Assembly (NCBI GenBank): GCA_028279595.1
Contig: JANQNK010000004.1
Span: forward strand, 32,001-96,000
Length of the DNA stretch: 64,000 nt
Source of the DNA: Thermoplasmatota archaeon
GTDB taxonomy: Archaea; Thermoplasmatota; JAKEGO01
Direction of reading: 5' to 3'
Shown here: piece after piece, positions 31,100-51,846 of the stretch
Layout of the letters: each line of letters opens with the position of its first letter
Position numbering within the stretch: the first letter of the stretch is position 1
Notes under the pieces: model-generated
The model's database searches: none
The model's input: only the letters and a program-made list of their open reading frames with translations
Told to the model about the DNA's origin: nothing
Program-made: the position numbers and the translations under genes

Positions 31100-34000
31100 A
31101 TGAGCGGCCCGGACGAAGCGGAGAAGCACCGACTGAAAGGCAACGAGCATTTCAAGAGTGGTAATTATAGAGGGGCGCTCGACGAGTTCGAACTGGGTTT
31201 GAAGGACGACCCGGACAGCATCAGGATACTCAACAACATGGCCATAACGCAGAGGGCGCTGAAGCTCTTCAAGGAGGCTCTCGGCACCTATGACAGGATA
31301 CTCGAGATAGACGCGGACAACGACAAGGCCCTCGTGGGGAGGAAGAAGTGCCTCGAATCGATGCCCGATGAACCGGAAGAGGAGGAGGTCGAGTTCGAGG
31401 CGGGGGAGCCGCCGGCCGAGGAGGCCGAACTGGAGCCCGAGAAGGACCTTCTGGACGACGATGCCAGTTTCGACGACGTTTTCTCCGATCTCCTGTCCGA
31501 TGATGAGGATGAGGAGCCGGCCGTCGAAGAGGAGCCTGAGGAGAGACCGGTAGAGAAGCCAGGAAAGGAACCAGAACCAGAGCGAAAGAAGGCACCGGAA
31601 CCCGAGAAGGTCGTCGAGGAGAAGCGAGAGGCAAAGGTCGATACATCCAAGACGGACGATGAGATCAAGGCGGTGAAGGCTGCAGCGGAGGAGCAGAAGC
31701 AGGCCATAACGGACGAGCTCGAGGATGTCCGCGCAAGTGCCGAGAAGAAGAAGGAGTCCATCGTCCAGGAGATCGCCGACCTGCAGGCCAGCATGGACGA
31801 GAAGAAGCGCGAGATCGAGGAGGAGATCCAGCGAGAGACGGAGTCCGTGCGGAGGGTCACCGAGGAAAGGAAGCGGGTGATCGAATCCGACCTCAAGAAG
31901 CTCGAATCCCGGCTGGAGAGGAGACAGGGCGAGCTTGCTGGCGAGATCGAGGAGCTCGAGGAGGCCGCCAATGCGAAGAAGGCCGTCCTGCAGAGCGAGA
32001 TCGACGACCTGGAGGGGACGATCTCGAGGAAGAGGGCGGAGATAGATGAACAGATGGCCGAAGAGTCCTCCCGCATGGCAGCGGAGCTTGAGGAGAAGCG
32101 CGAAGCGGCGAAGGCGGGGATACAGCGCGAGATAGACGAGCTCGAGGCCTCGGTCGAGACGAAACGACAGGAAGTGAAGGACCGTATCGCCGATGAGACG
32201 GCAGACATCGAATCATACCTTCAGGAGAAGAAGGACGAGTTCGAACGTTTACAATCATCAATGGAGGAGGAGGTCGAGAAGGCTACCGAGGAGCGGAAGC
32301 GACTCATCATGGCCAAGGTCTCCAAGATCAAGGAAGCTGCCGAGAAGCAGAGGGAGCAGCTAAGCGCCGATATCAAGGAGCAGAAGGCAGAGCTCACGAA
32401 GCTCAAGGAAACGATAGTGCGGGGCCGTGGTGAGCTGGACCGGCTCAAGACCGAACAGGCGGCTGCGGAACGCGATATCGAGGCGGCCGTCGAGGAGAGA
32501 AGGGCCGCCATCACCGAGGAGCTGTCCGGGGTTGAGGGAGAGCTCCAGGAGATGACCTCGAAGAGGGAGGAGGCCCAGCAGGAGCTCGACGAGATCAATT
32601 CCGGCATCAAGGAGCGGCGGGAGGCCGTCTCCAGGATCGAGGGTGAGCTCGACGAACGCAAGGCGGCACTGCAGATAGAGCTCGATGAGATCGATACCGC
32701 CGTTGAGGAGCGGAAGGGCGAACTCACGGGCGAGATCGAGGCGCTGGAGGCCACCCTCGGGGAGAAGCGCGAGGAGGTAAACGGACACCAGAGCCGCCTC
32801 GCCAAGCTCAAGAGGGCCATCACGGACCGCGAGGACGAGATCGAGGCCGAGCTGGCGGACAAGCGGAAGGCGGCCGAGGAGGAGAAGACCGCGCTGGAGG
32901 AGGAGCTCACCGGCCTTCGGCAACAGGCGGAGGAGAAACGCAATATCCTCGTTCAGAAGGTCAAGAAGATCAAGGTCGCAGCCGAGAGTCAGAAGGCGAA
33001 GATCAACGAGTCGATCGAAGAGCTGAAGTCCCAGGAACAGGAGATGGCCGATTCGGTGGAGGTAGCCAAGGCGGAGCTTGCCGAGATGGCCGGAAGGAAG
33101 ACAGAGCTGGAGACGGAGGTGGCCGGCCTCGAGGGAACCGTTGAGGAGAGGAGCCAGGCCCTCGATGAGGAGCTCGCCGAGGTCAAGAAGGGCTTCGCGA
33201 GGAAGAAGGCCGCCATGGAAAAGGAGATCGCGGAACTCGAGGAGACCTCCAAGGAGAGGAAGGCGGACCTCGAGATCGCCATCGTCTCACTGGAGGAGGA
33301 GCTTGCCGAGAAGCGCGAGCCCGTAGAGAGGGAGATCGGTGAGCTGAAGGAGGAGCTGGCGACACTCAAGTCCGAGGCGGTCGAGAGGAAGAGGACCAAG
33401 GACGAGCAGATGGCGAAGCTCGACAAGCTCAAGCGCGCGATCGAGAAGAGGCAGGCCGCCGTGGACGAAGAGGTCACGGGACTCCAGGAAAAGCTGGAGG
33501 AGACCAAGGGATCCCTCGAGCGGGAGATCCAGGAGACGGCGGAGGCGGGGGAGAAGGAGAAGAAGCTGCTAGAACTCAAGCTCAAGAAATTGCGCGGGAT
33601 CGCCGAGGAGAAGAAGGCCGAGATCGAGGAGCGGATCGCAGGGATGGAGGCCGAGGCCGAGGAGCGGAAGGCCGAACTGGAGACGGAGTTCGGCGACCAC
33701 AAGACCGCCCTCGAGGAGGCCCAGAAGACCTACGATGAACAGAAGGCCAGCTTCGAGGAAGCGCAGGAGCGCGCAGAAAGCATCAACGAGAAGATCACAT
33801 CACTCAAGGAGACGCACTCGAAGTTGAGGGCGATAATCTCAAGGGACACCGAGAAGGCGTCAGGCCTCAAGGCCGAGCGCGAGAAGCTCAAGAAGGAGAT
33901 CGAGGAGAAGCGCGAGGAGATCGAGGCGGTCCGGTCCGAGCATGGCACGGCCCGCAAAGAGATCGACGCGAAGCTCAAGGAGCGGGAGTCGGAGCTCGAG

Positions 34001-36538
34001 AAGAAGGAGGCCGAGATCGACGGCCGGATCTCCAAGAAGAAGGCCGAGGTCACGGATGCCCTCGAGAAGCTCAACAAGCTCAAGGCCAAGCTCAAGGTCG
34101 AGAGGTCGGAGATCGACGACCTCAAGGACCAGATGGGTTCGGAGGCCGTGAAGGTCAAGGCCCTCGAGGAGGAGCTGGCCGAAAAGGAGGCGCAGATAGC
34201 CGAACGCGAGGAGCGCGTCGCCTCGGACAGGAAGAAGCTCTCGGCAATGAAGGACCAGGTCATGGAGAAGGCCAAGGCCATCAAGGCCGGTCAGGGGAAG
34301 AGGAGCGAGAAGGCAGACAACATTTCGGCCGACCTACTTGCCGCAAAGGCGGAGATCGCGACCCTGAAGGATGCGCTGGCAAAGGCCAATGCGACCATCG
34401 AGGAGATCTCGGGAACAGTCAAGGAGGCTATCGAGAGCGCCGGGGAGGACAGGGCGAGGCTGACCGGCGAGCTCGCCGAGAGGGAGAAGGAACTCGCCAA
34501 GAAGGAGAAGGACTTCGCCGAGAAGGACGCGAACACGAGGCAGCGCCTCAAGGACGAGATCGAGAAGCTCAGGGTCCGGAAGAAGGCCCTGGATGACAAG
34601 GAGAGGAGCAACGAGGAGCAGACGGAGAGAGCCTCGAACGCTCTCAGGAAGGCCAAGGCGAAGGAAGTGAAGTACGATCAACTCATGCAGGAGATGGGCG
34701 AACCCGAGGAGCTCGAGAAGCTAAAGGAGACGCTCGAGAAGGTCCAGAAGGCCCACGACGAGGCTATCGAGGAGCTCAAGGGAAGGAAGAAGTCCGCCAG
34801 CGAGGAGATCCAGGCGCGTAAGGACGAGCTTGCGGCCCGGGAGAAGGAGATCATCGACCTGGAGAACGTCCTAAGGGAGCGCCAGGGGATGGTCGAGGGC
34901 TCAGAGGAGCACATGTCGAAGCTCCGGAAGAAGGAGAAGGAGCTTGCCGAGCGCGAAAGGGACATAATCGAACTGGAGAAGGTCCTGCGGGAACGCCAGA
35001 AGGTGGTCGACGAGGACATCGAGGAGAGAAAGGCCTCCGTCGACGGGGACGCGAAGTCGCTCGAGGACCAGAAGAAGATGCTCGAGGACAAGGAAGCGGA
35101 GCTCGCCGAACTGGAGAGGGGCATCAAGGAGCACGAGGAGACCTTCGAGAAGGAGATCAAGAAACGGGACGATCTCCTGAAGGAAAAGGAACGCGACCTC
35201 AAGAGGCGCGAGAAGGCCCTGGAGGAGGGCGAAGCGCAGCAGGTCAGCGAGCAGGAACGTGACACTATCGAGAAGCTCGCCGAGATCAGCGTCCAGAACG
35301 ACGAGCTCAAGGAGAGGGCCGACGAGGCCGAGAAGAACGCGAAGTTCCTGGAACTGGAGCTCAAGAAAGCCCAGGACGCGAAGGAGGCAGAGATCGAGAC
35401 CCTCCGCGAGGAGTACGAGGCGGCATCGTTGGACGCGGGTGCGGCCGATGGAAAGCTCAAGGAAGAGATCGAGAAGCGCGACGCGCGCATCGCCAAGCTC
35501 AAGGAGGAACTCGACACCGTGGAGGAGAGATACACCTCCACCGGAAGCCTCAACGCAAAGATCGAGGCCTTGACCCGCATGCTTAAGAACGCCTCCGAGG
35601 AGGGCGGCATCGACAAGTCTACGGTCGACCGTGTCGAGAAGACGCTCAAGGAGGTGCTGTCGCACGAACTGGACGAGCGCACCGAGGACATGGAGAAGGT
35701 CGAGAAGGGTCTGCGGGACAAGATCGACCAGCTCGAAGCGCTTGTGGAGGTCGAACGCGGCGAGTGCACGAACCTCCGTCAGCAGCTCGAGGAGATGGAG
35801 AACGAGATGACCGACAGGGTCCTCGAACTGAGGAACGAGCTGAAGACTGCCAAGGCCGGAGGCGGCGAGGGCGACTTCGACGAGGAGACCGTCCGGAGGA
35901 TCATGGGCGAGCTCGAGGAGTTCAGGGAGGACCTTGACCGGAGAGAGGCCGAGCTCGCCGAGCGAGAGGCGGCCGGAGGCGGGGCGAGCCCCGAGATGGT
36001 CGAGGCCATGGAGACGCTCAAGGCGGAGCTCGAGGAGAGGGAAAAGGCCCTCGAGGCGAAGGAGGAAGAGCTCGTCGAGCGCGAGAGCAAGATACCCGAG
36101 GTCATCCCGGAGGGGGAGATCGACGCTAGGACGAAGAAGATCCTCGACGCCGAGAAGGAGCTCAAGAAGAAGGCGCAGGCCTTCATGAAGAAGAAGGCGC
36201 AGTTCGAGAAGAAGCACAAGGAGATCGAGGACATAGACAAGAAGATCAAGATCCGAGAGGAAGCGCTCGAGAAGGACAAGGCGCTGCTCGAGACCCAGCG
36301 AGACCTCCTCGGTGACGTCAAGAACGTGAGGAAGGTCATGAAGGAGAAGGCCGAGGAGGTCGGATCCGTCGCGGAGGCGGTCGAGGAGATGTTCGGGGCG
36401 ATGTTCGAGATCTCCGCAAGCGATTCCCTCGAGGACGCCGAGAAGAAGGAGCAGATAGACTCGCTCAAGGAGGACGTCGCAGCACTTCTGGCAGCGCTGA
36501 AGGACGTCGGACAGAACCTGAAATCGGGTTCAGCGTGA
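31100..36538 (+). CDS. Giant (1812 aa) N-terminal TPR plus extended coiled-coil protein
   Basis: TPR (AEKHRLKGNEHFKSGNYRGA...ILNNMA), acidic Pro linker, >1600 aa E/K/A/L/R-rich helix; GGTGGAGG SD; no Walker motifs or TM seen. Confidence 0.9.
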   Translation: MSGPDEAEKHRLKGNEHFKSGNYRGALDEFELGLKDDPDSIRILNNMAITQRALKLFKEALGTYDRILEIDADNDKALVGRKKCLESMPDEPEEEEVEFEAGEPPAEEAELEPEKDLLDDDASFDDVFSDLLSDDEDEEPAVEEEPEERPVEKPGKEPEPERKKAPEPEKVVEEKREAKVDTSKTDDEIKAVKAAAEEQKQAITDELEDVRASAEKKKESIVQEIADLQASMDEKKREIEEEIQRETESVRRVTEERKRVIESDLKKLESRLERRQGELAGEIEELEEAANAKKAVLQSEIDDLEGTISRKRAEIDEQMAEESSRMAAELEEKREAAKAGIQREIDELEASVETKRQEVKDRIADETADIESYLQEKKDEFERLQSSMEEEVEKATEERKRLIMAKVSKIKEAAEKQREQLSADIKEQKAELTKLKETIVRGRGELDRLKTEQAAAERDIEAAVEERRAAITEELSGVEGELQEMTSKREEAQQELDEINSGIKERREAVSRIEGELDERKAALQIELDEIDTAVEERKGELTGEIEALEATLGEKREEVNGHQSRLAKLKRAITDREDEIEAELADKRKAAEEEKTALEEELTGLRQQAEEKRNILVQKVKKIKVAAESQKAKINESIEELKSQEQEMADSVEVAKAELAEMAGRKTELETEVAGLEGTVEERSQALDEELAEVKKGFARKKAAMEKEIAELEETSKERKADLEIAIVSLEEELAEKREPVEREIGELKEELATLKSEAVERKRTKDEQMAKLDKLKRAIEKRQAAVDEEVTGLQEKLEETKGSLEREIQETAEAGEKEKKLLELKLKKLRGIAEEKKAEIEERIAGMEAEAEERKAELETEFGDHKTALEEAQKTYDEQKASFEEAQERAESINEKITSLKETHSKLRAIISRDTEKASGLKAEREKLKKEIEEKREEIEAVRSEHGTARKEIDAKLKERESELEKKEAEIDGRISKKKAEVTDALEKLNKLKAKLKVERSEIDDLKDQMGSEAVKVKALEEELAEKEAQIAEREERVASDRKKLSAMKDQVMEKAKAIKAGQGKRSEKADNISADLLAAKAEIATLKDALAKANATIEEISGTVKEAIESAGEDRARLTGELAEREKELAKKEKDFAEKDANTRQRLKDEIEKLRVRKKALDDKERSNEEQTERASNALRKAKAKEVKYDQLMQEMGEPEELEKLKETLEKVQKAHDEAIEELKGRKKSASEEIQARKDELAAREKEIIDLENVLRERQGMVEGSEEHMSKLRKKEKELAERERDIIELEKVLRERQKVVDEDIEERKASVDGDAKSLEDQKKMLEDKEAELAELERGIKEHEETFEKEIKKRDDLLKEKERDLKRREKALEEGEAQQVSEQERDTIEKLAEISVQNDELKERADEAEKNAKFLELELKKAQDAKEAEIETLREEYEAASLDAGAADGKLKEEIEKRDARIAKLKEELDTVEERYTSTGSLNAKIEALTRMLKNASEEGGIDKSTVDRVEKTLKEVLSHELDERTEDMEKVEKGLRDKIDQLEALVEVERGECTNLRQQLEEMENEMTDRVLELRNELKTAKAGGGEGDFDEETVRRIMGELEEFREDLDRREAELAEREAAGGGASPEMVEAMETLKAELEEREKALEAKEEELVERESKIPEVIPEGEIDARTKKILDAEKELKKKAQAFMKKKAQFEKKHKEIEDIDKKIKIREEALEKDKALLETQRDLLGDVKNVRKVMKEKAEEVGSVAEAVEEMFGAMFEISASDSLEDAEKKEQIDSLKEDVAALLAALKDVGQNLKSGSA

Positions 36539-39565: not shown

Positions 39566-39747
39566 CGATGAATAGAGGGAGACTGTCGTATATTAAAATT
39601 ACCTCGTTTTCTGGACTTATGGAGGGTTTACGGGATGGACGGTTATGTTGGGTCCGCATTGGTACATGCTAGTTTGAAATGGTGCGGGCCCACCAGGCCA
39701 CTCATAGAAAGATATTTAGCATTGGAGGAAATACCATTGGCGATACC

Positions 39748-40566
39748 ATGAGATGGAATGTCATAGCGTTGACGCTCATTGCAGCGTTCTCACTCGTGCT
39801 TGTGAGCATGATCGGTGTTGTAGTAGCGCAGGAGGAGGGAGATCCGCAGCTATCCTACAAGCAGCCAACACTCTATATGAAATCGGACTCCGATGACGAT
39901 AGTGGCCGCATGTGGATGGATGCGAACCCAGATATGAACGGGAGTGTGGCGAGCCACACTTCACCCAACACACTTGGTTCAGGCACACATGGGGAGACCT
40001 ACAACCAGGATCCGGCACTGGATCACACCCTATACCTGGATCCATCAGCAGGAAACCTCGTTATCCATCTTCACATGGCGAGGTACGACTCCGGCACCCA
40101 CGACACCACTGTCCACTTCCAGCTCTCGGCGGGCAACATTGCTATCAACGCTGAGGTTCCAGAAGCCGAACCCGACCATTGGCATCTCGAGACCAACCTG
40201 AGCGACGACCAAACCGAGATAGCATCGGATACTACGATAACATTCTCATGGGACTACGACTTCTCGGGATCCGGCCAGTACGAGATGTGGTGTGATGGTT
40301 CGAGCTACATCACATTCCCTGTGGCCAAGGACACCGACAACGACGGCACTCCGGACACCATGGACGATGATGATGACAACGACGGTTATTCCGATGAGAA
40401 GGAGATCGCCGCGGGAACCGACCCGCTCGATCCAAACAGCAAGCCGAGCGGCGGCGGAGGCGGAGGAGATGACGACGAGAGCAGCAATCCTCTGCCCGGG
40501 TTCGAGAGCCTGATGGTACTGGCTGCCGCACCCGTCGCGATCATCGCGTTCAGGCGCAGGTTCTGA
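39748..40566 (+). CDS. Secreted PGF-CTERM protein with TSP3-like Ca-binding repeat
   Basis: Signal MRWNVIALTLIAAF...; DTDNDGTPDTMDDDDDNDGYSDEKE..GTDPLD; tail LPGFESLMVLAAAPVAIIAFRRRF. Confidence 0.85.
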   Translation: MRWNVIALTLIAAFSLVLVSMIGVVVAQEEGDPQLSYKQPTLYMKSDSDDDSGRMWMDANPDMNGSVASHTSPNTLGSGTHGETYNQDPALDHTLYLDPSAGNLVIHLHMARYDSGTHDTTVHFQLSAGNIAINAEVPEAEPDHWHLETNLSDDQTEIASDTTITFSWDYDFSGSGQYEMWCDGSSYITFPVAKDTDNDGTPDTMDDDDDNDGYSDEKEIAAGTDPLDPNSKPSGGGGGGDDDESSNPLPGFESLMVLAAAPVAIIAFRRRF

Positions 40567-41293: not shown

Positions 41294-43642
41294 CTGAAAG
41301 CAACCGCCTTTGTCCTGATATCGATCATGCTCATGACCGTCCTGGTACCTGTGGTCAGCTCGATCGAGCCTGCCAGTGGACCCGGGACCGCATTCGAACG
41401 ACCTGATGGGGACCCCGTTCTGCAGTGGGGCCTGGGCCTTATCATGGAGGACGCCGCGGACGACGAGCCATTCGAGGTCATAGTCCAGTTCCACGATCCG
41501 CTGACCAAGAGAACCACGGAAACGGTGGAAGCACTCGGATTCGAGGTCTACAGGGAGATCCCCCTGTTCGATGCCCTCTTCATGGAAGGAGCGAAGGCAT
41601 CCATCCTTACGCTTGCGGGGCGCGATGACGTTGAATTCATCGAATACAACGCACCGATGCAAAATCACATGAACCTCAGCGCCAAGACAATATCGGCCAC
41701 GGACGTCTGGAACAGGCAGGTCCTCAGGGATGACGGCGAGGAGACGATAGACGGAACTGGAGTTACGGTCGTCGTCCTCGATTCCGGCATCGACGGGACC
41801 CACCCCGACCTGCCATACACCCCCGTCAACATCGAGGGGGGATCGAGGCCGCAGAAGGGTGACAAGGTCATATTCAACGCCAAGAAGGACCAGGACATCA
41901 TCGGGGAGCCGTGGGTCCAGTTCATCGACACTGACACGACCTCCGGCCATGGTACGCATTGCGCCGGGACGGTCGGCGGTACCGGCGCTGCGGCCGCAGG
42001 CGCAAAGGCTGGCATCGCTCCGAACGCGTGGCTGATAGGCTTGAGCATGGGCGAGCTCTTCATGACGATCGACGAGTACTCCGGACTCGAGTGGGTCTAC
42101 GAGCATTCGCGCCCGGGTGACAATCCGGCCAACATCAGGGTCGTGACCAACAGCTGGGGACCGGGATGGCCGTTCGACGCCCTCGACCCCAACGAACTCT
42201 CGTCGCAGATGATCGACAAGATAGTCACAGAGAACAACGTCGCGGTGATCTTCGCAGCCGGGAACGACGGCAGCGACAACCACGATGGTTCTTCCGACAC
42301 GACCAACATATTCGCGAAGGTGCCCGTGTCGATAGGCGTGGCCGCCACCCAGAGGGACGGATCCGGATTGGCGACGTTCACATCGAGGGGTGACGTGACC
42401 ATGAACGAGACCTGGCCGGACGTCGGCGCCCCGGGCGTCGGGATCTGGGCCCCCGCCGCTAGGGTGACGATGATCGGGGCTGCGACCATGGGAAGCGACA
42501 TCATCAGCCTCAGACAGCACGATCCCTACTACATGGCCATCAGCGGGACGAGCATGGCGACGCCGCATGTCGCTGGCCTCACGGCGCTGCTTTGGCAAGC
42601 CTGTCCGAGCCTGACCATGAGCGACGTGGTCGAGGACGGCCACACGGCAGACGAGACCGGCCTCTCGCCGTTCATGCACGAGACCGAGGTAATCCTGAAG
42701 GCGACCGCCGATTACATAGAGCAGGACGGCGACAATGGCGTGCCGGACAGCGACACCGTGGAGATAGGGCTCCTTGACAGACCTTACGATTATGCCCAGG
42801 GTTACGGAATGGTGAACTCCACCAAGGCAGTGGCCGTCGCCCTGATGCTGGACAAGATGAGGGACACCGACCACGACGGGAAGGTGGACAATGAGGACGT
42901 TACGGTATTCGACGCGATCAAGAAATACGAGAGCATCCTGATGGACCGCTTCGAGTCGCGAAGCGTCGATGTGATCACGACGTCGTTCGAGGGCCAGTTC
43001 GTCCATCCCTGGGAGGTCATCGATACTGTCCTCAACCAGTCGGCCCCGATGTACGGCCGGCGGATACCCCATACGAACCTGTACAAGACCCTCTACATCC
43101 CCGAGGACGCACTCGACCTCCACATAGTCATGGACATCGACCAGTTATCGGGGGGCCTAAACGTAGCCGACCTTTACATCACGATCGACGTCGACGGGGA
43201 CGGCGACGAGGACTGGACCCCGGACGGGGAACCGAATCCCCTGGCCATCCAGGACCAGAAGGAGTGGTACATCCACATCTCCACCGGCTTCATGAGCGAT
43301 TGGCGGGGTAGACCGTGGGGTTTCAATGTTACCGGTACGGCCTGGGGATGGGACCCCGAGGACCGTTTCGGCGCCCACTTCGAGGTCGAGATCGAGGTGA
43401 TACTCGACAGCGTGAAGGATCCCACGGTGGACTACGCACCCTACAGGTTCGGTACTAGGACCGACAACTACGGGGGGGGAGAGACCACCCTGCATCTCTA
43501 CTACTTCGATCTGAGGTCCGACCAGGGGGACGATGACGACTCCTCCGTGGTCTTCGACATGGTTCCCATGATAATCGGACTGATGGCAGTCGCGGGAGTC
43601 GCCTATTTCATCCTCACGAAGAGGAAGGACACGACGGAATGA
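41294..43642 (+). CDS. S8 (subtilisin-like) serine peptidase, secreted with C-terminal TM anchor
   Basis: VVVLDSGID, GHGTHCAG, FAAGN, SGTSMATPHVAG; probable CTG start at 41294 after GGAGGTG (track start 41327). Confidence 0.94.
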   Translation: MKATAFVLISIMLMTVLVPVVSSIEPASGPGTAFERPDGDPVLQWGLGLIMEDAADDEPFEVIVQFHDPLTKRTTETVEALGFEVYREIPLFDALFMEGAKASILTLAGRDDVEFIEYNAPMQNHMNLSAKTISATDVWNRQVLRDDGEETIDGTGVTVVVLDSGIDGTHPDLPYTPVNIEGGSRPQKGDKVIFNAKKDQDIIGEPWVQFIDTDTTSGHGTHCAGTVGGTGAAAAGAKAGIAPNAWLIGLSMGELFMTIDEYSGLEWVYEHSRPGDNPANIRVVTNSWGPGWPFDALDPNELSSQMIDKIVTENNVAVIFAAGNDGSDNHDGSSDTTNIFAKVPVSIGVAATQRDGSGLATFTSRGDVTMNETWPDVGAPGVGIWAPAARVTMIGAATMGSDIISLRQHDPYYMAISGTSMATPHVAGLTALLWQACPSLTMSDVVEDGHTADETGLSPFMHETEVILKATADYIEQDGDNGVPDSDTVEIGLLDRPYDYAQGYGMVNSTKAVAVALMLDKMRDTDHDGKVDNEDVTVFDAIKKYESILMDRFESRSVDVITTSFEGQFVHPWEVIDTVLNQSAPMYGRRIPHTNLYKTLYIPEDALDLHIVMDIDQLSGGLNVADLYITIDVDGDGDEDWTPDGEPNPLAIQDQKEWYIHISTGFMSDWRGRPWGFNVTGTAWGWDPEDRFGAHFEVEIEVILDSVKDPTVDYAPYRFGTRTDNYGGGETTLHLYYFDLRSDQGDDDDSSVVFDMVPMIIGLMAVAGVAYFILTKRKDTTE

Positions 43643-45680: not shown

Positions 45681-47552
45681 TCACTTCTTCTTGACCCTGT
45701 CCACGATGCCCTGGAATATCTCTTTGGCCTCGTTGTACTTGGTGACGTCCTTCAGGAGTGGCGTTAACCTTTCAATATCCCCCTGGAGGGCTGGGGCCTT
45801 GATCTTCGACACGACCGTCTGCATCTTGTTCAGGCGCTCGACGCGCTGCTCGAAGACAGTGAAGTTCTTGTTTATCTTAGCCTGATCGCCTGTGGCAACG
45901 ATCTTCTCCAGTATCGCGACGTCGAAACCGTCGGCCTTCCACTTGGCGATCGTGGCGGCGACGTCGTCCCCCTCGTCAGCCGCGGGAGCGGGCTCGGGGG
46001 GTGCTGGTGCCGGTTCAGGCACAGGCGGGGCCTTCGCGGGCTGGGCGAGATGGGCCTCGGCCTTCGCAAGCGTGCTCATGAGATCGTCCAGGAGCTTCCT
46101 GGCCTCGCCGACGCGATCGGGTTCGGAGAGCAGAACGAGGATACTCTGCTTTACCTTGTCCCCCTCGTGCAGGTCGAGGGCGTCCAGTTCCTCGCGCAGT
46201 GATGCGGCCTTCGCCACGTTATCGATGAATGCCGGATACTTTGCCTCGAATCCCGCGACATCACTGTCCAGGAGGCCCATCATCTTGTCGATGTTGTAAC
46301 CCTGCTCCCTGAGGACCCTGAGGTCCTCCTTGTACTCCGCCTTCTTGTCCTTCGGAGCGGCTGGTTCAGGGGGAGCCTCCTCGCCCTCGATGTCGATCTT
46401 CTTCATTCCCTCGATCCGATCGGAAAGGGTATCGACCTCGGCCATGAGCTTGTCGAGCTCCTTTTCGATGGTCTCACCCGTTCCGGACTCACCCGTCTCC
46501 TCGATCCCCGCGGTCTTCATCATCTGCTCGCCGAGCTCTGACGTCAGTGCAGACATCTTCTCCTCGGGGGTGGGCGCAGGCGCCTCGACCGGGGGTGGTG
46601 CCTCCGGTGCGGGTTCAGGTTCGGGCTTCGGTTCTGGCTCGGGCTCGGGTTCCGGTTCAGGTTCAGGCTCGGGTTCCGGCGCCTTCTCGGGCTCCTTCGC
46701 TGCTGGCGCGGGAGCCTTCTTTGCCGGCTTGCCCGGCTTGACGTGCTCCGCGAAGTCCTTCGGCAGCTCGGGGACGGTATCTCCCACTGTCATTCCGAGC
46801 CTCTCGATGATCTCCTCGGCGAGGGCCAGATAGGCCTTTGCGCCCTTGTGATAGGGCATGTAGTAGATGATCGGCTTTCCGACGTCCGGAGCCTCTGCGA
46901 GCTTGATGGTCCTCGGGATGATGGTCTCGAAGACGAGCGGGCCCATTGCCTTCTTGACCTCCTCGACCATCCTCTTCGAGAGGCGTGTCCTTGCGTCGTA
47001 CATTGTCATGAGCACACCGTCGATGACGAGGTCGGAGTTGATGTTGTCCATGACGAGCTTGACCGTGTCCAGCAGCTTGCTGAGACCCTCGAGCGCGTAA
47101 TACTCGCACTGTAGGGGAATGATGACAGAATCGGACGCACTGAGGTTGTTGATCGTGAGGAGACCCAGTGATGGAGGACTGTCGAGAATGATGAAATCGT
47201 ACTCGTCCCTTATCGAACCGAGCTTCCTCTTCAGGATCGTCTCCCTGTATATCTCCGAGACGAGCTCCAATTCGGCGGCCGCGAGGTTGACGTCCGAGGG
47301 GACCAGGAAGAGGTTCTCCCATTCTGTCGGCATGACGACGTCCTCGATCGGCAGGCGGCCGATCATGACCTCGTAGATCGTCTTACCGGGGGGCGGAGCC
47401 GTTCCGAGGCCGGTGGCAAGGTTGCCCTGGGAATCGGTGTCGATGAGAAGCACCTTCTTGCCGATCTTTGCAAGACAAGCGCCGAGACTGATGGATGTGG
47501 TCGTCTTGCCCACACCACCCTTCTGGTTTGCGATCACGATCACGCGTCCCAT
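45681..47552 (-). CDS. parA: ParA/Soj family ATPase with ~370-aa C-terminal extension
   Basis: NQKGGVGKTT deviant Walker A, DTDSQGN, LDSPPSLG, PLQCEYYALEG, IPRTIKLAEAP; followed by a Pro/Glu linker and helical repeats. Confidence 0.93.
   Translation of the reverse strand: MGRVIVIANQKGGVGKTTTSISLGACLAKIGKKVLLIDTDSQGNLATGLGTAPPPGKTIYEVMIGRLPIEDVVMPTEWENLFLVPSDVNLAAAELELVSEIYRETILKRKLGSIRDEYDFIILDSPPSLGLLTINNLSASDSVIIPLQCEYYALEGLSKLLDTVKLVMDNINSDLVIDGVLMTMYDARTRLSKRMVEEVKKAMGPLVFETIIPRTIKLAEAPDVGKPIIYYMPYHKGAKAYLALAEEIIERLGMTVGDTVPELPKDFAEHVKPGKPAKKAPAPAAKEPEKAPEPEPEPEPEPEPEPEPKPEPEPAPEAPPPVEAPAPTPEEKMSALTSELGEQMMKTAGIEETGESGTGETIEKELDKLMAEVDTLSDRIEGMKKIDIEGEEAPPEPAAPKDKKAEYKEDLRVLREQGYNIDKMMGLLDSDVAGFEAKYPAFIDNVAKAASLREELDALDLHEGDKVKQSILVLLSEPDRVGEARKLLDDLMSTLAKAEAHLAQPAKAPPVPEPAPAPPEPAPAADEGDDVAATIAKWKADGFDVAILEKIVATGDQAKINKNFTVFEQRVERLNKMQTVVSKIKAPALQGDIERLTPLLKDVTKYNEAKEIFQGIVDRVKKK
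46610..46680 (-). repeat. (PE)n low-complexity linker in ParA
   Basis: Degenerate 6-bp repeat encoding PEPEPEPEPEPEPEPEPKPEPEP. Confidence 0.85.
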
Positions 47553-47582
47553 ATCTTCACCTTGTTTCGACGTCGAACTCCC

Positions 47583-48314
47583 TCATGTCTCGATGAGGGT
47601 GTCAAGTTCCTGGCTCAGTTTCTTCAGTTCGTCTATGCCCTCGCTGATGGCTTCCTCGAAGCTCTTGCCGTCGTCCTCCAGATCCTCGTCGGGCGAGGGT
47701 CCGGGTTCCGGTTCCGCGGGTTCTGGTCTAGGAGCGTTCACCGTCAGCAACGGTGCCGGTTTCGCTTGCTCGGGCGCGGCTGTCACAACTGGCTCCGCGA
47801 TGACCTCGACCGGCACCGGTTCTCCGTCCTCGTGCTCGGCTGAGGGCTTCTTCTCGCTCTCCAGCTCCTTCACCTGTTCGGACACCTTCGCGAAGAGTCC
47901 GGTCAGACCCCGGCCCTTCTCGCCGTTCGTCGGCGAGTGCCGCAAGGCTTCCAGGCGCCGCTGCCTTCGTTCCTCGATGAGTGCCTTCTTGTCCTCGTTG
48001 GTCAGGACGAGCTTTGCCTCGGGGTTTGCGGCGATCACGGCATCGATGGCCTGCACGGTCCATTCGAACTGGTCCGTCCAGGTGCCTTTCAGGGACTTGA
48101 TCCTGTCGAGGGCCTCCTTGCCCAGCCATCTGCCCTCGTCGTCGATGAACTCGGCCGCCTGGGCCTCCCCGTTGACCGCCAGAAGGGCGGCATCGGCCGA
48201 CTCCTCGATTCCTGCGATAAGTAGATAACCGGTGACGGACCGACTTTTGATGATCTCAAGCGGGTCGCCGTCAAGCCCCTCCTGAACCCTCGTCCCTTCT
48301 AATGCCTCCATCAT
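47583..48314 (-). CDS. Hypothetical ParA-associated protein (DUF2226-like N-terminus, Pro/Glu linker, C-terminal helix)
   Basis: TGYLLI...NG...AAE...G..LGKEALDRI...NPEAKL resembles DUF2226 (by eye); ends 30 nt upstream of parA on the same strand. Confidence 0.75.
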   Translation of the reverse strand: MMEALEGTRVQEGLDGDPLEIIKSRSVTGYLLIAGIEESADAALLAVNGEAQAAEFIDDEGRWLGKEALDRIKSLKGTWTDQFEWTVQAIDAVIAANPEAKLVLTNEDKKALIEERRQRRLEALRHSPTNGEKGRGLTGLFAKVSEQVKELESEKKPSAEHEDGEPVPVEVIAEPVVTAAPEQAKPAPLLTVNAPRPEPAEPEPGPSPDEDLEDDGKSFEEAISEGIDELKKLSQELDTLIET

Positions 48315-48564: not shown

Positions 48565-49668
48565 TCATCGGCGTCTTCGTACCAATATCACCGCTGCCGG
48601 GACCGCCAGGGCGATCAGGACCGCTTCGAAGCCTGGAAGCCAGCCGTCATCGTCGTCGTCTCCATCGCCGTCGCCGTTGTCCGGACCGTCGGGATCGGTA
48701 TCGATCATGATGTTCATCGTGATCTCTTGGCTTACGGTCATGTTCTCCTCAAGGTCGTAGTAGAACATGAAGCTGAAAGTGTCCGATGTAAAACCGTTGA
48801 TCGTTTCTGAGGTAACGGGATCGTCGGGGATGTCAATGATCACAACGACGGATTCCATGTCCTCAGAAGCAACGAGGAAAATGAACTCTGGGTCCATCTT
48901 CGTATCGGCGTCGACCGCGACAGTCTGGGGCCATAGACCGGGATCGTAGGTCTGATTGCATGTGACGTTGATATCCATGGTCCCAGGATTGTTGAGCTCG
49001 ATGACGAAGGTAGCCTCTTCACCGGGTGCTACGGTATCGTTCAGAGACAATACGCCGAAGTCGATCCCCGCTACCGAGTAGTTGCGTCCAGGCATCAGAT
49101 AGCTCTGGGCGGTGTCGCCCTGCTCGCGGGTTCCGCCGTAGGGGGTCCTCCAGACCGCGGCCCATGGCTTCGTGATCATTCCGGCCGGGGCTAGGCCGAC
49201 GTCGCCCTTGACCACGAAATAGGTGATCGTTCCAGCGTTGGAGTCCCAGTCGCCATCTATGTTCTGGGCGTCGGACTCGCTGCTGACGGACCCGTTCTCG
49301 TCGTATGTGACCGTCCGGAGCTCGTATCCAGCCTGTGTCCAGCCGGTGCCGAAGTTGAAGATTGAAACGACGACCCAGTTTGCTTCGCCAACGGAGAAGT
49401 AGACCTCGTACTCGAGGGTCTGCATGTTGGTCTGGACTGGCGGAAGCGTGTATATCTCCAGTGTGCAGTTGAGCTGGGTGCCGTTCTCGCCGTCGAACCA
49501 GGCCCACTCGATGTCGTCATCGTCCTCGTCATCGTCACCAGCAGCGTCTGGCTCGCCCTCGTCGATGACCTCGGGGTCCACTGAACTGCCCGCCTCGGCA
49601 TAGCCGACGGTGAGCACGAACATCAACGCTATCAAGAACGCTATGAGAAGTACGTGGCCGTTCCTCAT
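48565..49668 (-). CDS. Secreted PGF-CTERM cell-surface protein
   Basis: Signal MRNGHVLLIAFLIALMF...; acidic beta-rich body; tail DGDGDDDDDGWLPGFEAVLIALAVPAAVILVRRRR. Confidence 0.87.
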   Translation of the reverse strand: MRNGHVLLIAFLIALMFVLTVGYAEAGSSVDPEVIDEGEPDAAGDDDEDDDDIEWAWFDGENGTQLNCTLEIYTLPPVQTNMQTLEYEVYFSVGEANWVVVSIFNFGTGWTQAGYELRTVTYDENGSVSSESDAQNIDGDWDSNAGTITYFVVKGDVGLAPAGMITKPWAAVWRTPYGGTREQGDTAQSYLMPGRNYSVAGIDFGVLSLNDTVAPGEEATFVIELNNPGTMDINVTCNQTYDPGLWPQTVAVDADTKMDPEFIFLVASEDMESVVVIIDIPDDPVTSETINGFTSDTFSFMFYYDLEENMTVSQEITMNIMIDTDPDGPDNGDGDGDDDDDGWLPGFEAVLIALAVPAAVILVRRRR

Positions 49669-49799
49669 TCTATCACCGGTCCGTCCATTCCTCCAGAATG
49701 TAATAAACCTTTCCATTGCCAGTATGACGACCCGTAGCAGGGAGTGGCGCTATAGGCAACGCTGTCCGGGGGAGTGAAAATGGGAAAAATGGGGGGGGA

Positions 49800-50345
49800 T
49801 CACGCAAGGATGCCGGTCTTCCGGATCTCTTCCGTGATCTTCTCGATGGCCCGCTTGTTCTCGTCCATCTTGGTAGTGCCTGTGCAGACGATCTTGCCGG
49901 ACTTGAACAGCAGGATGGTAGCCTTGGGTTCCTCCATCCGGTAGATGAGACCTGGGAACTCCTCGGGAACGTATTCTATCCTCTCTATGCCGAGGGAGCC
50001 AACGAGCTTGCTGAGCCTTAGCTCCTTTCCGACGTCCGTCACGGACACGATATCCTGAATGTGGATCTCGATGTTCCCAGTGAGGGGTGCGCCGGCAGCC
50101 GTCAGCTTCTGTACGAGGGCGCCCATCGCCGCCCTAAGTTCCTTGAGGTTCTTGCACCCCGTGGTCACGACCTTGCCCGACCTCAGTATGAGGAAACCGA
50201 CCTTCGGCTCATCCAGGTTGTATATCAGACCCGGGAACGCCGTTGGATCGAAGTCGGTCACGCCCAGCTTCTCTGCTAGCGGGGACAGGTCGAACTCCTT
50301 TGCGATGGTGCAGGATGCGACTATGTTCTCTATGGTCGTCTCCAT
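49800..50345 (-). CDS. tbp: TATA-box binding protein (divergent paralog)
   Basis: Two repeats: ENIVAS..FPGLIY..PK..SGK..TG and QDIVS..FPGLIYR..PK..LFKSGKIVCTG. Confidence 0.95.
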   Translation of the reverse strand: METTIENIVASCTIAKEFDLSPLAEKLGVTDFDPTAFPGLIYNLDEPKVGFLILRSGKVVTTGCKNLKELRAAMGALVQKLTAAGAPLTGNIEIHIQDIVSVTDVGKELRLSKLVGSLGIERIEYVPEEFPGLIYRMEEPKATILLFKSGKIVCTGTTKMDENKRAIEKITEEIRKTGILA

Positions 50346-50392: not shown

Positions 50393-51052
50393 TCAGAGGG
50401 CTTCCTCTTCCTCTTCTTCCTCTTCGTCCTCGTCCTCGAACTCGACACCGCAGACCGGACACTCCATCGCGTCGGCGGGGATCATGGCGCCGCAGTTCGG
50501 GCACTCCACCTGATCGTCGTCGAGCTCTTCCTCTTCCTCCTCCGGCTCGGGGAGGGGTGCACCGCACTCGGGGCATTCCGTTGCATCGGGGTCCTCGATG
50601 ACTGCGCCGCACTCCGGGCAATCCCTGATCGCCTCTTCCTCGAAGCTCAACGGTGCGCCGCACTCCGGGCACTCGGTGGCATACGGGTCGGTGATCATCG
50701 CACCGCACTCCGGGCAGTCCCTGACCTCTTCCATCGGCTCAAGGGGCGCTCCACACTCGGGGCACTCCGTCGCCATCGGGTCTGCGATGTAGGCACCGCA
50801 TTCCAGACAGTTCCGCTCCATTTCCTCTATCTCCGCTGGGGCGGCTCCGCCCATCATCATCCCCATGAGAAGGATGATAACACCCAACACTAGCACTCCG
50901 ACCCCTGCGTAGACGTACATCATCTGGGTGTCGCCGACCTCGCTGTTCCCCGTGTCCAGGGCTTCTATATCATCAGCTTTGTAGGCGACCATGGCCCCGA
51001 TGAGACCCAGTATCAGTACGATAAGGCCGATCCAAACCAACATCTTGTTCAT
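50393..51052 (-). CDS. 2-TM membrane protein with four zinc ribbons (8 CxxCG knuckles) and acidic tail
   Basis: Two hydrophobic helices; repeated CPECGA.I.DP.ATECPECGAPL; GGAGGTG SD; TTTATAAA at 51149-51156. Confidence 0.88.
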   Translation of the reverse strand: MNKMLVWIGLIVLILGLIGAMVAYKADDIEALDTGNSEVGDTQMMYVYAGVGVLVLGVIILLMGMMMGGAAPAEIEEMERNCLECGAYIADPMATECPECGAPLEPMEEVRDCPECGAMITDPYATECPECGAPLSFEEEAIRDCPECGAVIEDPDATECPECGAPLPEPEEEEEELDDDQVECPNCGAMIPADAMECPVCGVEFEDEDEEEEEEEEAL

Positions 51053-51327: not shown

Positions 51328-51846
51328 TCAGAAAGCAGCCTCTTCTTCTTCCTCTTCCTCGGCGGGCTCCTCTTCGTCGGAGTACTCTTCCTCGCCTTCT
51401 GCGGCTTCCTCTTCCTCGTACTCCTCCTCTTCGCCGTATTCCTCGTCCTCGTACTCCTCGTCGCCGTACTCCTCGTCCTCGTACTCCTCATCCTCGTACT
51501 CGGGCTCGGGCAGCGGCGCGCCGCACTCCGGACAGTCGACAGCTTCGGGGTCGTCGATCTCGGCACCGCACTCGGGGCAGTTCCTGATGTACTCTTCTTC
51601 GTACTCATCGCCGTACTCGTCCTCGCCGTACTCTTCGGCTGCAGCGCCGCCGAGCATCAGACCGGCCAGGAAGATGATCACGCCGAGCACCAGGACACCT
51701 ACGGCTGCGTAGATGTACATCATCTGGGTGTCGCCGATCTCATCGTTGTCTGTCTCGAATATCGAATCTGCCTGATAGGCGACCACGGCTCCGACGAGAC
51801 CCAGTATCAGTACGATGAGTCCGATCCAAACCAACATCTTGTTCAC
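51328..51846 (-). CDS. 2-TM membrane protein with one zinc ribbon and EY(E/G)DE repeats; paralog of 50393..51052
   Basis: Near-identical N-terminus MNKMLVWIGLIVLILGL; two CPECG; 15-bp tandem repeats. Confidence 0.88.
   Translation of the reverse strand: MNKMLVWIGLIVLILGLVGAVVAYQADSIFETDNDEIGDTQMMYIYAAVGVLVLGVIIFLAGLMLGGAAAEEYGEDEYGDEYEEEYIRNCPECGAEIDDPEAVDCPECGAPLPEPEYEDEEYEDEEYGDEEYEDEEYGEEEEYEEEEAAEGEEEYSDEEEPAEEEEEEEAAF

Follow-up and report, generated by a model that had tools for sequence, protein, structure and literature searches.

How is a Soj-type ParA ATPase switched and put to use in an archaeon in which no ParB is found? This question is raised by a two-gene operon in a 64,000-nucleotide stretch of a Thermoplasmatota archaeon (assembly GCA_028279595.1, contig JANQNK010000004.1, positions 32,001 to 96,000; hereafter the window). 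The operon is read from the minus strand, with the gene of a partner protein (P0001) first and the ParA gene (P0002) second, and the open reading frame coordinates bear out an earlier note on this DNA that had described a partner of 243 amino acids (aa) and a Soj-like ParA with a 30-nt gap between their genes. The partner contains a putative ParA-binding peptide of the ParB type. On balance, we regard the operon as a ParB-less Soj-type positioning module whose upstream protein would be an ATPase-activating adaptor, likely with a protein cargo.

Searches with Pfam ParB_N (PF02195) and TIGR00180 found no ParB in the window and none in the genome as a whole (86% complete), confirming and extending the earlier remark that ParB/Spo0J is missing. 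Likewise, a ParB over the cut-off was lacking in all 30 genomes that carry such ParAs, of which 12 are 90% complete or more. One weak match was a hexapeptide-repeat fusion and hence not ParB. In a genome of the same order but another family (G002), a hexapeptide-repeat (gamma carbonic anhydrase-like) domain is fused to a ParB/Srx-like domain (L180:1345-2238). The Bacillus-type parS consensus had no match in the genome with up to two mismatches. As both ParB and parS are missing, the operon is not ParABS.

The ATPase domain of P0002 is 50-55% identical to bacterial Soj. Its deviant Walker A with signature lysine and the catalytic aspartate (K11, G12, K16, D40) match 78 of 78 bacterial Soj proteins, a Walker B is present as well, and the putative DNA-binding residues are kept, namely R188 and, at the position of Myxococcus xanthus R238, K217 (Lys in 12 of the 78). 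All ten positions of the ParB pocket (PMC12462528) are identical to, or within the range of, the same 78 proteins (Y60, E61, N89, L95, E96, L129, L131, I134, L166, I171). In the second ParA of the genome (contig C11), Leu replaces the Tyr that is invariant in the bacterial set; the ATPase adjoining the peptide is therefore the one best equipped to receive it. An archaeal MinD is not indicated, with 89.6 bits for TIGR01969 against a cut-off of 201.75 and Soj-type DNA residues present instead. The earlier description as Soj-like thus holds for the ATPase domain, but it did not mention an extension of 370 aa, which consists of a Pro/Glu linker, an acidic helix and two five-helix repeats of ~85 aa and brings the protein to 623 aa. 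Among solved structures the best match of the helical repeat had a Z of 7.7, to generic helical bundles, which does not imply a novel fold.

The peptide, GRGLTGLF, lies exactly where the earlier note had placed it. [quoted passage not shown] The partner has its Arg at the R13 position and a Lys at the L11 position. Scored with a matrix of 69 bacterial ParB N-termini from bacterial loci, in which genuine ParBs reach 19-36 bits (in-sample), the window peptide obtains 4.2 bits, a score exceeded by 19 of the 631,280 windows of the proteome (top 0.003%). It falls well below real ParBs because the first Leu, present in 66 of the 69, is replaced by Lys, i.e. the motif is degenerate, and taken alone the score is no more than suggestive. 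The loose pattern GxGLxxL occurs in the proteome at chance level (6 matches vs 3 expected); a tighter pattern is unique, but it was written after the motif was seen. What makes the peptide more than chance is its conservation together with the near-canonical form in distant members. The conservation of GRGLxxL in homologs, which the earlier note had proposed as a check, was found: G[RK]GLxxL[FL] stands at the same place in all nine full-length family members. Partner residues 132-141 are 80-100% conserved (60% in P0014) as compared to 58-62% (41%) for the globular domain, and at the same position the sequences of the two most distant members are KGKGLSALLP and IGKGLAALLP. With 16-17 bits, the peptides of the homologs P0014 and P0015 outscore all windows of this proteome, and the hydrophobic positions of the ParB motif are occupied in three of four cases in the window peptide (plus the Arg), three of four in P0014 and four of four in P0015.

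The strongest alternative is that the peptide is a decayed or repurposed remnant, e.g. the beginning of an amphipathic helix (aa 134-152) that binds membranes or mediates dimerisation, while the two proteins pair via their acidic helices or ParA is regulated by its own extension. The lost first Leu and the low score would fit such a remnant, as would the amphipathic helix into which the motif continues (82-91% conserved among close kin), the visibility of the C-terminal helix in every operon including that of G002, with the same i, i+4, i+7, i+8 hydrophobic spacing, and the GLF/GWL-type basic helices that begin the second ParA and short DnaA-like proteins. Against a remnant, G, the basic residue, G, L and L are retained at 31-37% overall identity, and the ParA pocket is intact. 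Moreover, the Pro that follows the near-canonical motif in the two distant homologs argues against a long membrane helix, and the two acidic helices, of the partner and of the ParA extension, are not significantly similar (hhalign probability 3.6%). We thus consider a remnant rather unlikely.

The body that presents the peptide is not that of a ParB. Partner residues 1-105 are acidic (9 K+R vs 20 D+E) and are predicted to form a sheet-and-helix domain (pLDDT about 90) that resembles DUF2226/PatA_N clusters in an atlas search with a TM of about 0.6 (for DUF2226 0.60, rmsd 2.3 over 104 residues, predicted models on both sides). P0001 has no Pfam match and does not reach the gathering score of PF09987 (DUF2226), but its homolog P0015, which matches the partner-family profile with E 7e-18, exceeds the PF09987 cut-off (34 bits vs 22). 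The distant homologs are DUF2226-type proteins, and the DUF2226-like N-domain of the earlier note is in this way supported indirectly. Among solved structures, Foldseek gave no match and the best VIA hit had a Z of 5.4, which again does not imply novelty. C-terminal to the domain come a helix, the peptide, a variable linker and an acidic terminal helix. No DNA-binding fold was seen in the partner, and no ribbon-helix-helix (RHH) pattern in its model, which covers aa 1-150 and shows the DUF2226-like sheet domain plus a helix. A published function for DUF2226 was not found in a literature search.

Gene adjacency is also conserved. A partner gene followed by a ParA with the same extension was found at four further loci (L004, L009, L010 and L013, the last with different flanking genes). 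In G002, the N-domain lies at one contig edge, and on another contig a ParA of 931 aa is preceded by the matching C-terminal helix; we infer that these are halves of one gene split by an assembly gap, and an attempt to bridge the gap did not succeed. Altogether six of seven loci are adjacent, counting G002 across its gap, with P0015 as the exception; adjacency had been a further check proposed in the earlier note. P0015 (L014:5562-7253), a DUF2226 protein of 563 aa, combines a near-canonical ParB peptide with a TPR-like tail and is possibly an unlinked second adaptor. A match in G134 was spurious (ribosomal P12), one in G017 was weak, and a metagenome scan gave no matches.

Taken with the analogy to characterised ParA/ParB pairs, these features suggest that the adaptor probably activates ParA through the peptide. 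To judge from its conserved residues, ParA would form an ATP dimer and coat the nucleoid non-specifically. The G[RK]GLxxL[FL] peptide of the adaptor may then fold into a short helix and dock in the ParB pocket at the dimer edge, where its basic residue would trigger hydrolysis and the release of ParA from DNA, by analogy with ParA/ParB of M. xanthus. In the manner of McdAB or PomXYZ, the cycle might be coupled to a protein assembly by the DUF2226-like domain, the ParA-fused repeats or both, and for the link to the cargo the fused extension may be just as important as the DUF2226 domain. A prediction of the complex, with a ParA dimer, ATP, Mg and the peptide in two copies, was uninformative (score 0.04, mark 0.32) and is not used as evidence either way.

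Related Soj systems in the phylum give this arrangement a context. The closest ParAs elsewhere in Thermoplasmatota (families f9, f16, f45, f18 and f44) are plain Soj proteins of ~253 aa. Of the genes behind the nearest Thermoplasmatota ParAs, 22 of the 23 examined start with a peptide of the L-G[RK][GS] type on non-ParB bodies. The commonest body, in f9/f16/f45, consists of helical repeats and TPR; zinc ribbons form the body in f18, and the partners in f44 and f34 are small proteins that look RHH-like by eye, which is unconfirmed. The extension of the window ParA is homologous to the f9/f16/f45 body (hmmsearch E 1.5e-15, hhalign probability 97%), collinear across the acidic helix and the repeat. 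With its ParA extension homologous to the commonest partner body, the operon looks like a rearranged version, and the simplest reading is that an adaptor body was fused to ParA while the peptide came to reside on a DUF2226 protein. The ParA tree supports the clade of this order (100/100) and the f9/f16/f45 clade (100/99) separately; its backbone is unresolved, with a joint Thermoplasmatota clade neither shown nor rejected (p-AU 0.14), and we therefore claim neither a single transfer nor a donor or a direction of the fusion. The single-copy purF lies ~3.7 kb upstream of the operon and directly before parA in f9/f16, a weak hint of synteny.

Single loci illustrate this variety. In G021 (L059:4656-5712), the gene after Soj encodes a protein of 100 aa that combines a ParB-type peptide with two zinc ribbons. 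At four other loci (L055:1495-2522, L057:1495-2522, L056:1211-2370 and L060:4189-5269), the protein encoded after ParA has 90-105 aa, a ParB-like peptide and a strand-helix pattern that is RHH-like. The f34 pair of ParA and RHH-like protein is near a recombinase-like gene and is perhaps part of a mobile element.

Chromosome segregation in the manner of SegAB or HpaAB, with the partner or an unlinked third protein binding a centromere, would agree with a chromosomal-type Soj that retains DNA-binding residues, and with the occurrence of the same peptide at the head of the RHH-like small proteins in f44 and f34. Non-ParB centromere binders are indeed known from archaea, i.e. Haloferax HpaB and SegB of Sulfolobales (PMC13722703, PMC12139799). 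Nevertheless, the acidic N-domain of the partner has a DUF2226/PatA_N fold, parS was not found, no repeat array was seen upstream of the operon, and a motif scan of the genome showed SMC and FtsZ, all of which makes segregation quite unlikely. The earlier proposal of a non-ParB adaptor that activates ParA and links it to a cargo, either DNA or a protein complex, stands only in part: motif, adjacency, the retained ParB pocket and the same peptide on non-ParB bodies in relatives speak for the adaptor, but DNA as the cargo finds no support, given the acidic N-domain and the lack of parS and of a visible DNA-binding fold.

If the cargo is not DNA, the genome itself offers one candidate protein. 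The DUF2226-like profile and the repeat profile each match only one protein outside the operon, in both cases P0037 (C11:4264-6867, L058), an 867-aa protein in which a DUF2226-like domain and two repeats are joined to a bacterial DnaA ATPase core (E 5e-59; E 2e-69 to Bacillus subtilis DnaA) and to DUF835, an inactive KaiC (PMC5847659). Its DnaA domain III keeps the Walker A/B, arginine finger and sensor II motifs, and its gene lies ~4 kb from the second parA. The layout of DUF, repeats (in part) and DnaA recurs in six other families, and the DUF match in orthologs of the fusion reaches E 1e-9 to 1e-11 within a small set. DnaA cores are present in 27 of 27 genomes with the closest Soj matches as compared to 43 of 401 phylum genomes, with up to eight matches per genome. 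This co-occurrence is a lead and not a test, because the Soj-match cut-off was chosen after the data were seen and the genomes belong to seven related families; an atlas feature score of 0.84 in the DnaA-fusion comparison is likewise a lead only. Since outside the operon neither domain type occurs in any other protein of the genome, the DnaA fusion is our lead candidate, but tentatively so: that the cargo is a protein of some kind appears slightly favoured, that it is specifically this one does not.

DnaA domain IV was found neither in the fusions nor in five genomes, and Orc1/Cdc6 genes are present, so that the DnaA-core proteins are unlikely to be initiators. Their fusion partners (DUF835, zinc ribbons or a secretion/pilus ATPase) indicate signalling or the assembly of surface structures instead. 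In G021, for example, a DnaA ATPase core is joined to a type II/IV secretion (pilus-type) ATPase in a protein of 813 aa (L174:3356-5797). Short DnaA-core proteins of ~420 aa (L170, L171, L177) begin with a basic amphipathic helix, contain a coiled coil and end in an acidic helix. In cyanobacteria, PATAN domains make contact with pilus motors. A literature search found nothing on DnaA/ParA systems in Thermoplasmatota.

Soj of B. subtilis acts on DnaA, and a corresponding replication control, with the peptide protein as the switch in place of Spo0J, would be in line with the closeness of domain III to B. subtilis DnaA, its intact motifs and the accessory domains, co-occurrence and second-parA neighbourhood of the fusion, yet the lack of domain IV, the presence of Orc1/Cdc6 and the kind of fusion partners make it the least probable explanation. 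A broader scenario built on the positioning module is doubtful but worth stating: several Thermoplasmatota lineages may have taken over bacterial Soj, the ParB peptide and the DnaA core, lost both DNA-reading parts, namely DnaA domain IV and the body of ParB, and connected the rest anew via shared DUF2226 and repeat modules into a protein-only circuit, in which a nucleoid-surfing Soj would position or switch a DnaA-core scaffold. The operon would then be the version with the repeats fused to Soj and the peptide moved to the DUF2226 protein.

Several points weigh against a positioning module with an activating adaptor and a DnaA-type cargo. The first Leu, which the window peptide lacks, is critical for binding in M. 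xanthus, and the peptide is internal, behind a folded domain of 105 aa, while characterised activators usually have it at or near the N-terminus (PMC13170346). It is visible in neither assembled half of the G002 gene, of which the middle is missing; since the gap was not bridged, the G002 peptide is unobserved and not absent. P0015 carries the peptide but has no adjacent ParA on its 8-kb contig. The partner family is small, found in 3 of the 401 phylum genomes searched, and consists mostly of close kin, and three of its divergent sequences come from one metagenome sample. Regarding the cargo, the co-occurrence of Soj and DnaA is limited to the seven related families, and DnaA also occurs in 16 genomes that lack this Soj. 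In this genome the DnaA fusion gives a modest DUF match (E 3e-4 proteome-wide), a direct hhalign of the partner profile with the single N-domain of the fusion failed, and shared domains are no proof of binding.

Compared to known systems, the positioning module shares with bacterial ParABS (Soj/Spo0J; M. xanthus, PMC12462528, PDB 8RAY) the Soj-type ATPase residues and a G[RK]GLxxL peptide in the neighbouring gene. It differs by the lack of a ParB CTPase/HTH protein and of parS, by a peptide that is internal to an upstream DUF2226-like protein, and by the repeat extension of its ParA. The archaeal HpaAB (PMC13722703) and SegAB (PMC12139799, PMC8682754) are two-gene operons of a ParA and a non-ParB partner as well, but their partners are RHH centromere binders that contact the ATPase through a short N-terminal segment, as opposed to an acidic DUF2226-like domain with an internal peptide and no recognisable DNA-binding part. 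There is no support for an assignment to SegAB/HpaAB, SegB itself not having been searched directly, and the operon rather resembles a ParA with a ParB-type activator. McdAB, PomXYZ and ParC/PpfA (PMC11407121, PMC13170346) combine a nucleoid-binding ATPase with a non-ParB activating adaptor of low-complexity and helical parts, as is predicted for the operon, and PomY provides a precedent for a helix away from the N-terminus that is predicted to use the ParB site. Homology of their adaptors to P0001 was not detected, and the P0001 peptide is recognisably ParB-derived. The DUF2226 (PF09987)/PatA_N (PF14332) family has the same fold by model, with a chain of homologs that reaches the Pfam cut-off, but in the partner the domain is joined to a ParB-type peptide. 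We thus place the operon in the ParA-plus-adaptor type, as a variant without prior description in the literature searched.

If the proposed module is real, the ParB peptide would be a portable switch that sits on at least four unrelated bodies in a single phylum (repeats with TPR, zinc ribbons, RHH-like and DUF2226) and is functional even from an internal position. It would also give DUF2226 a first functional context and the unexplained archaeal DnaA-core fusions a partner.

Table 1. Features of the operon, in window positions.
Feature	Position	Strand	Remarks
Adaptor gene P0001, 243 aa	47583..48314	(-)	6 close and 2 distant homologs
DUF2226/PatA_N-like globular domain, aa 1-105, acidic	48000..48314	(-)	model, fold match, homolog P0015, charge
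ParB-type putative ParA-binding peptide, internal, aa 134-141	47892..47915	(-)	motif alignment, matrix score
Pro/Glu-rich variable linker, aa 153-215	47670..47858	(-)	2-19% identity to homologs
Acidic amphipathic C-terminal helix, conserved, aa 216-243	47586..47669	(-)	54-81% identity; also in order-level relative G002
Intergenic gap, 30 nt	47553..47582	none
ParA gene P0002, 623 aa, Soj-type with C-terminal extension	45681..47552	(-)
ParA ATPase domain, aa 1-254	46791..47552	(-)	AAA_31 E 4e-65, 219 bits; best PDB match 8RAY, E 4e-74
Acidic helix of the extension, aa 358-385	46398..46481	(-)	collinear with helix in f9/f16/f45 peptide-bearing partners
Helical repeat 1, about 85 aa	46086..46340	(-)
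Helical repeat 2, about 85 aa, five-helix model	45714..45968	(-)	pLDDT 89

Promoter, terminator and repeat scans stayed at chance level. Just upstream of the operon (Table 1) lies a TBP-family gene (window 49800-50345), with PF00352 seen at L009 and L010, which are syntenic. Farther upstream follows a cluster of tandem membrane-protein genes that is shared with L009; two of the encoded proteins (50393-51052 and 51328-51846) are small paralogs with nearly identical N-termini, followed by four CxxC zinc-ribbon repeats or one and by acidic tails. Secreted acidic proteins that end in a PGF-CTERM-like sorting signal (by eye) are encoded at 39679-40566 and 48565-49716, and a subtilase at 41327-43642. 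A protein of 1812 aa with a TPR-like segment at its start (31100-36538) is similar to a large TPR, Pro/Lys-rich gene near the operon of G002 (L023:1-2964). Elsewhere in the genome, the second ParA has an N-terminal helix of the GWLRR type, as in G002 (L008:6018-12438 in G000:C11, L024:7389-12015 in G002), and its gene is close to a Holliday-junction-resolvase-like gene. It directly follows a gene for a giant coiled-coil protein (1839 aa; 1196 aa in G002), and the two are a conserved pair and possibly a polar scaffold system.

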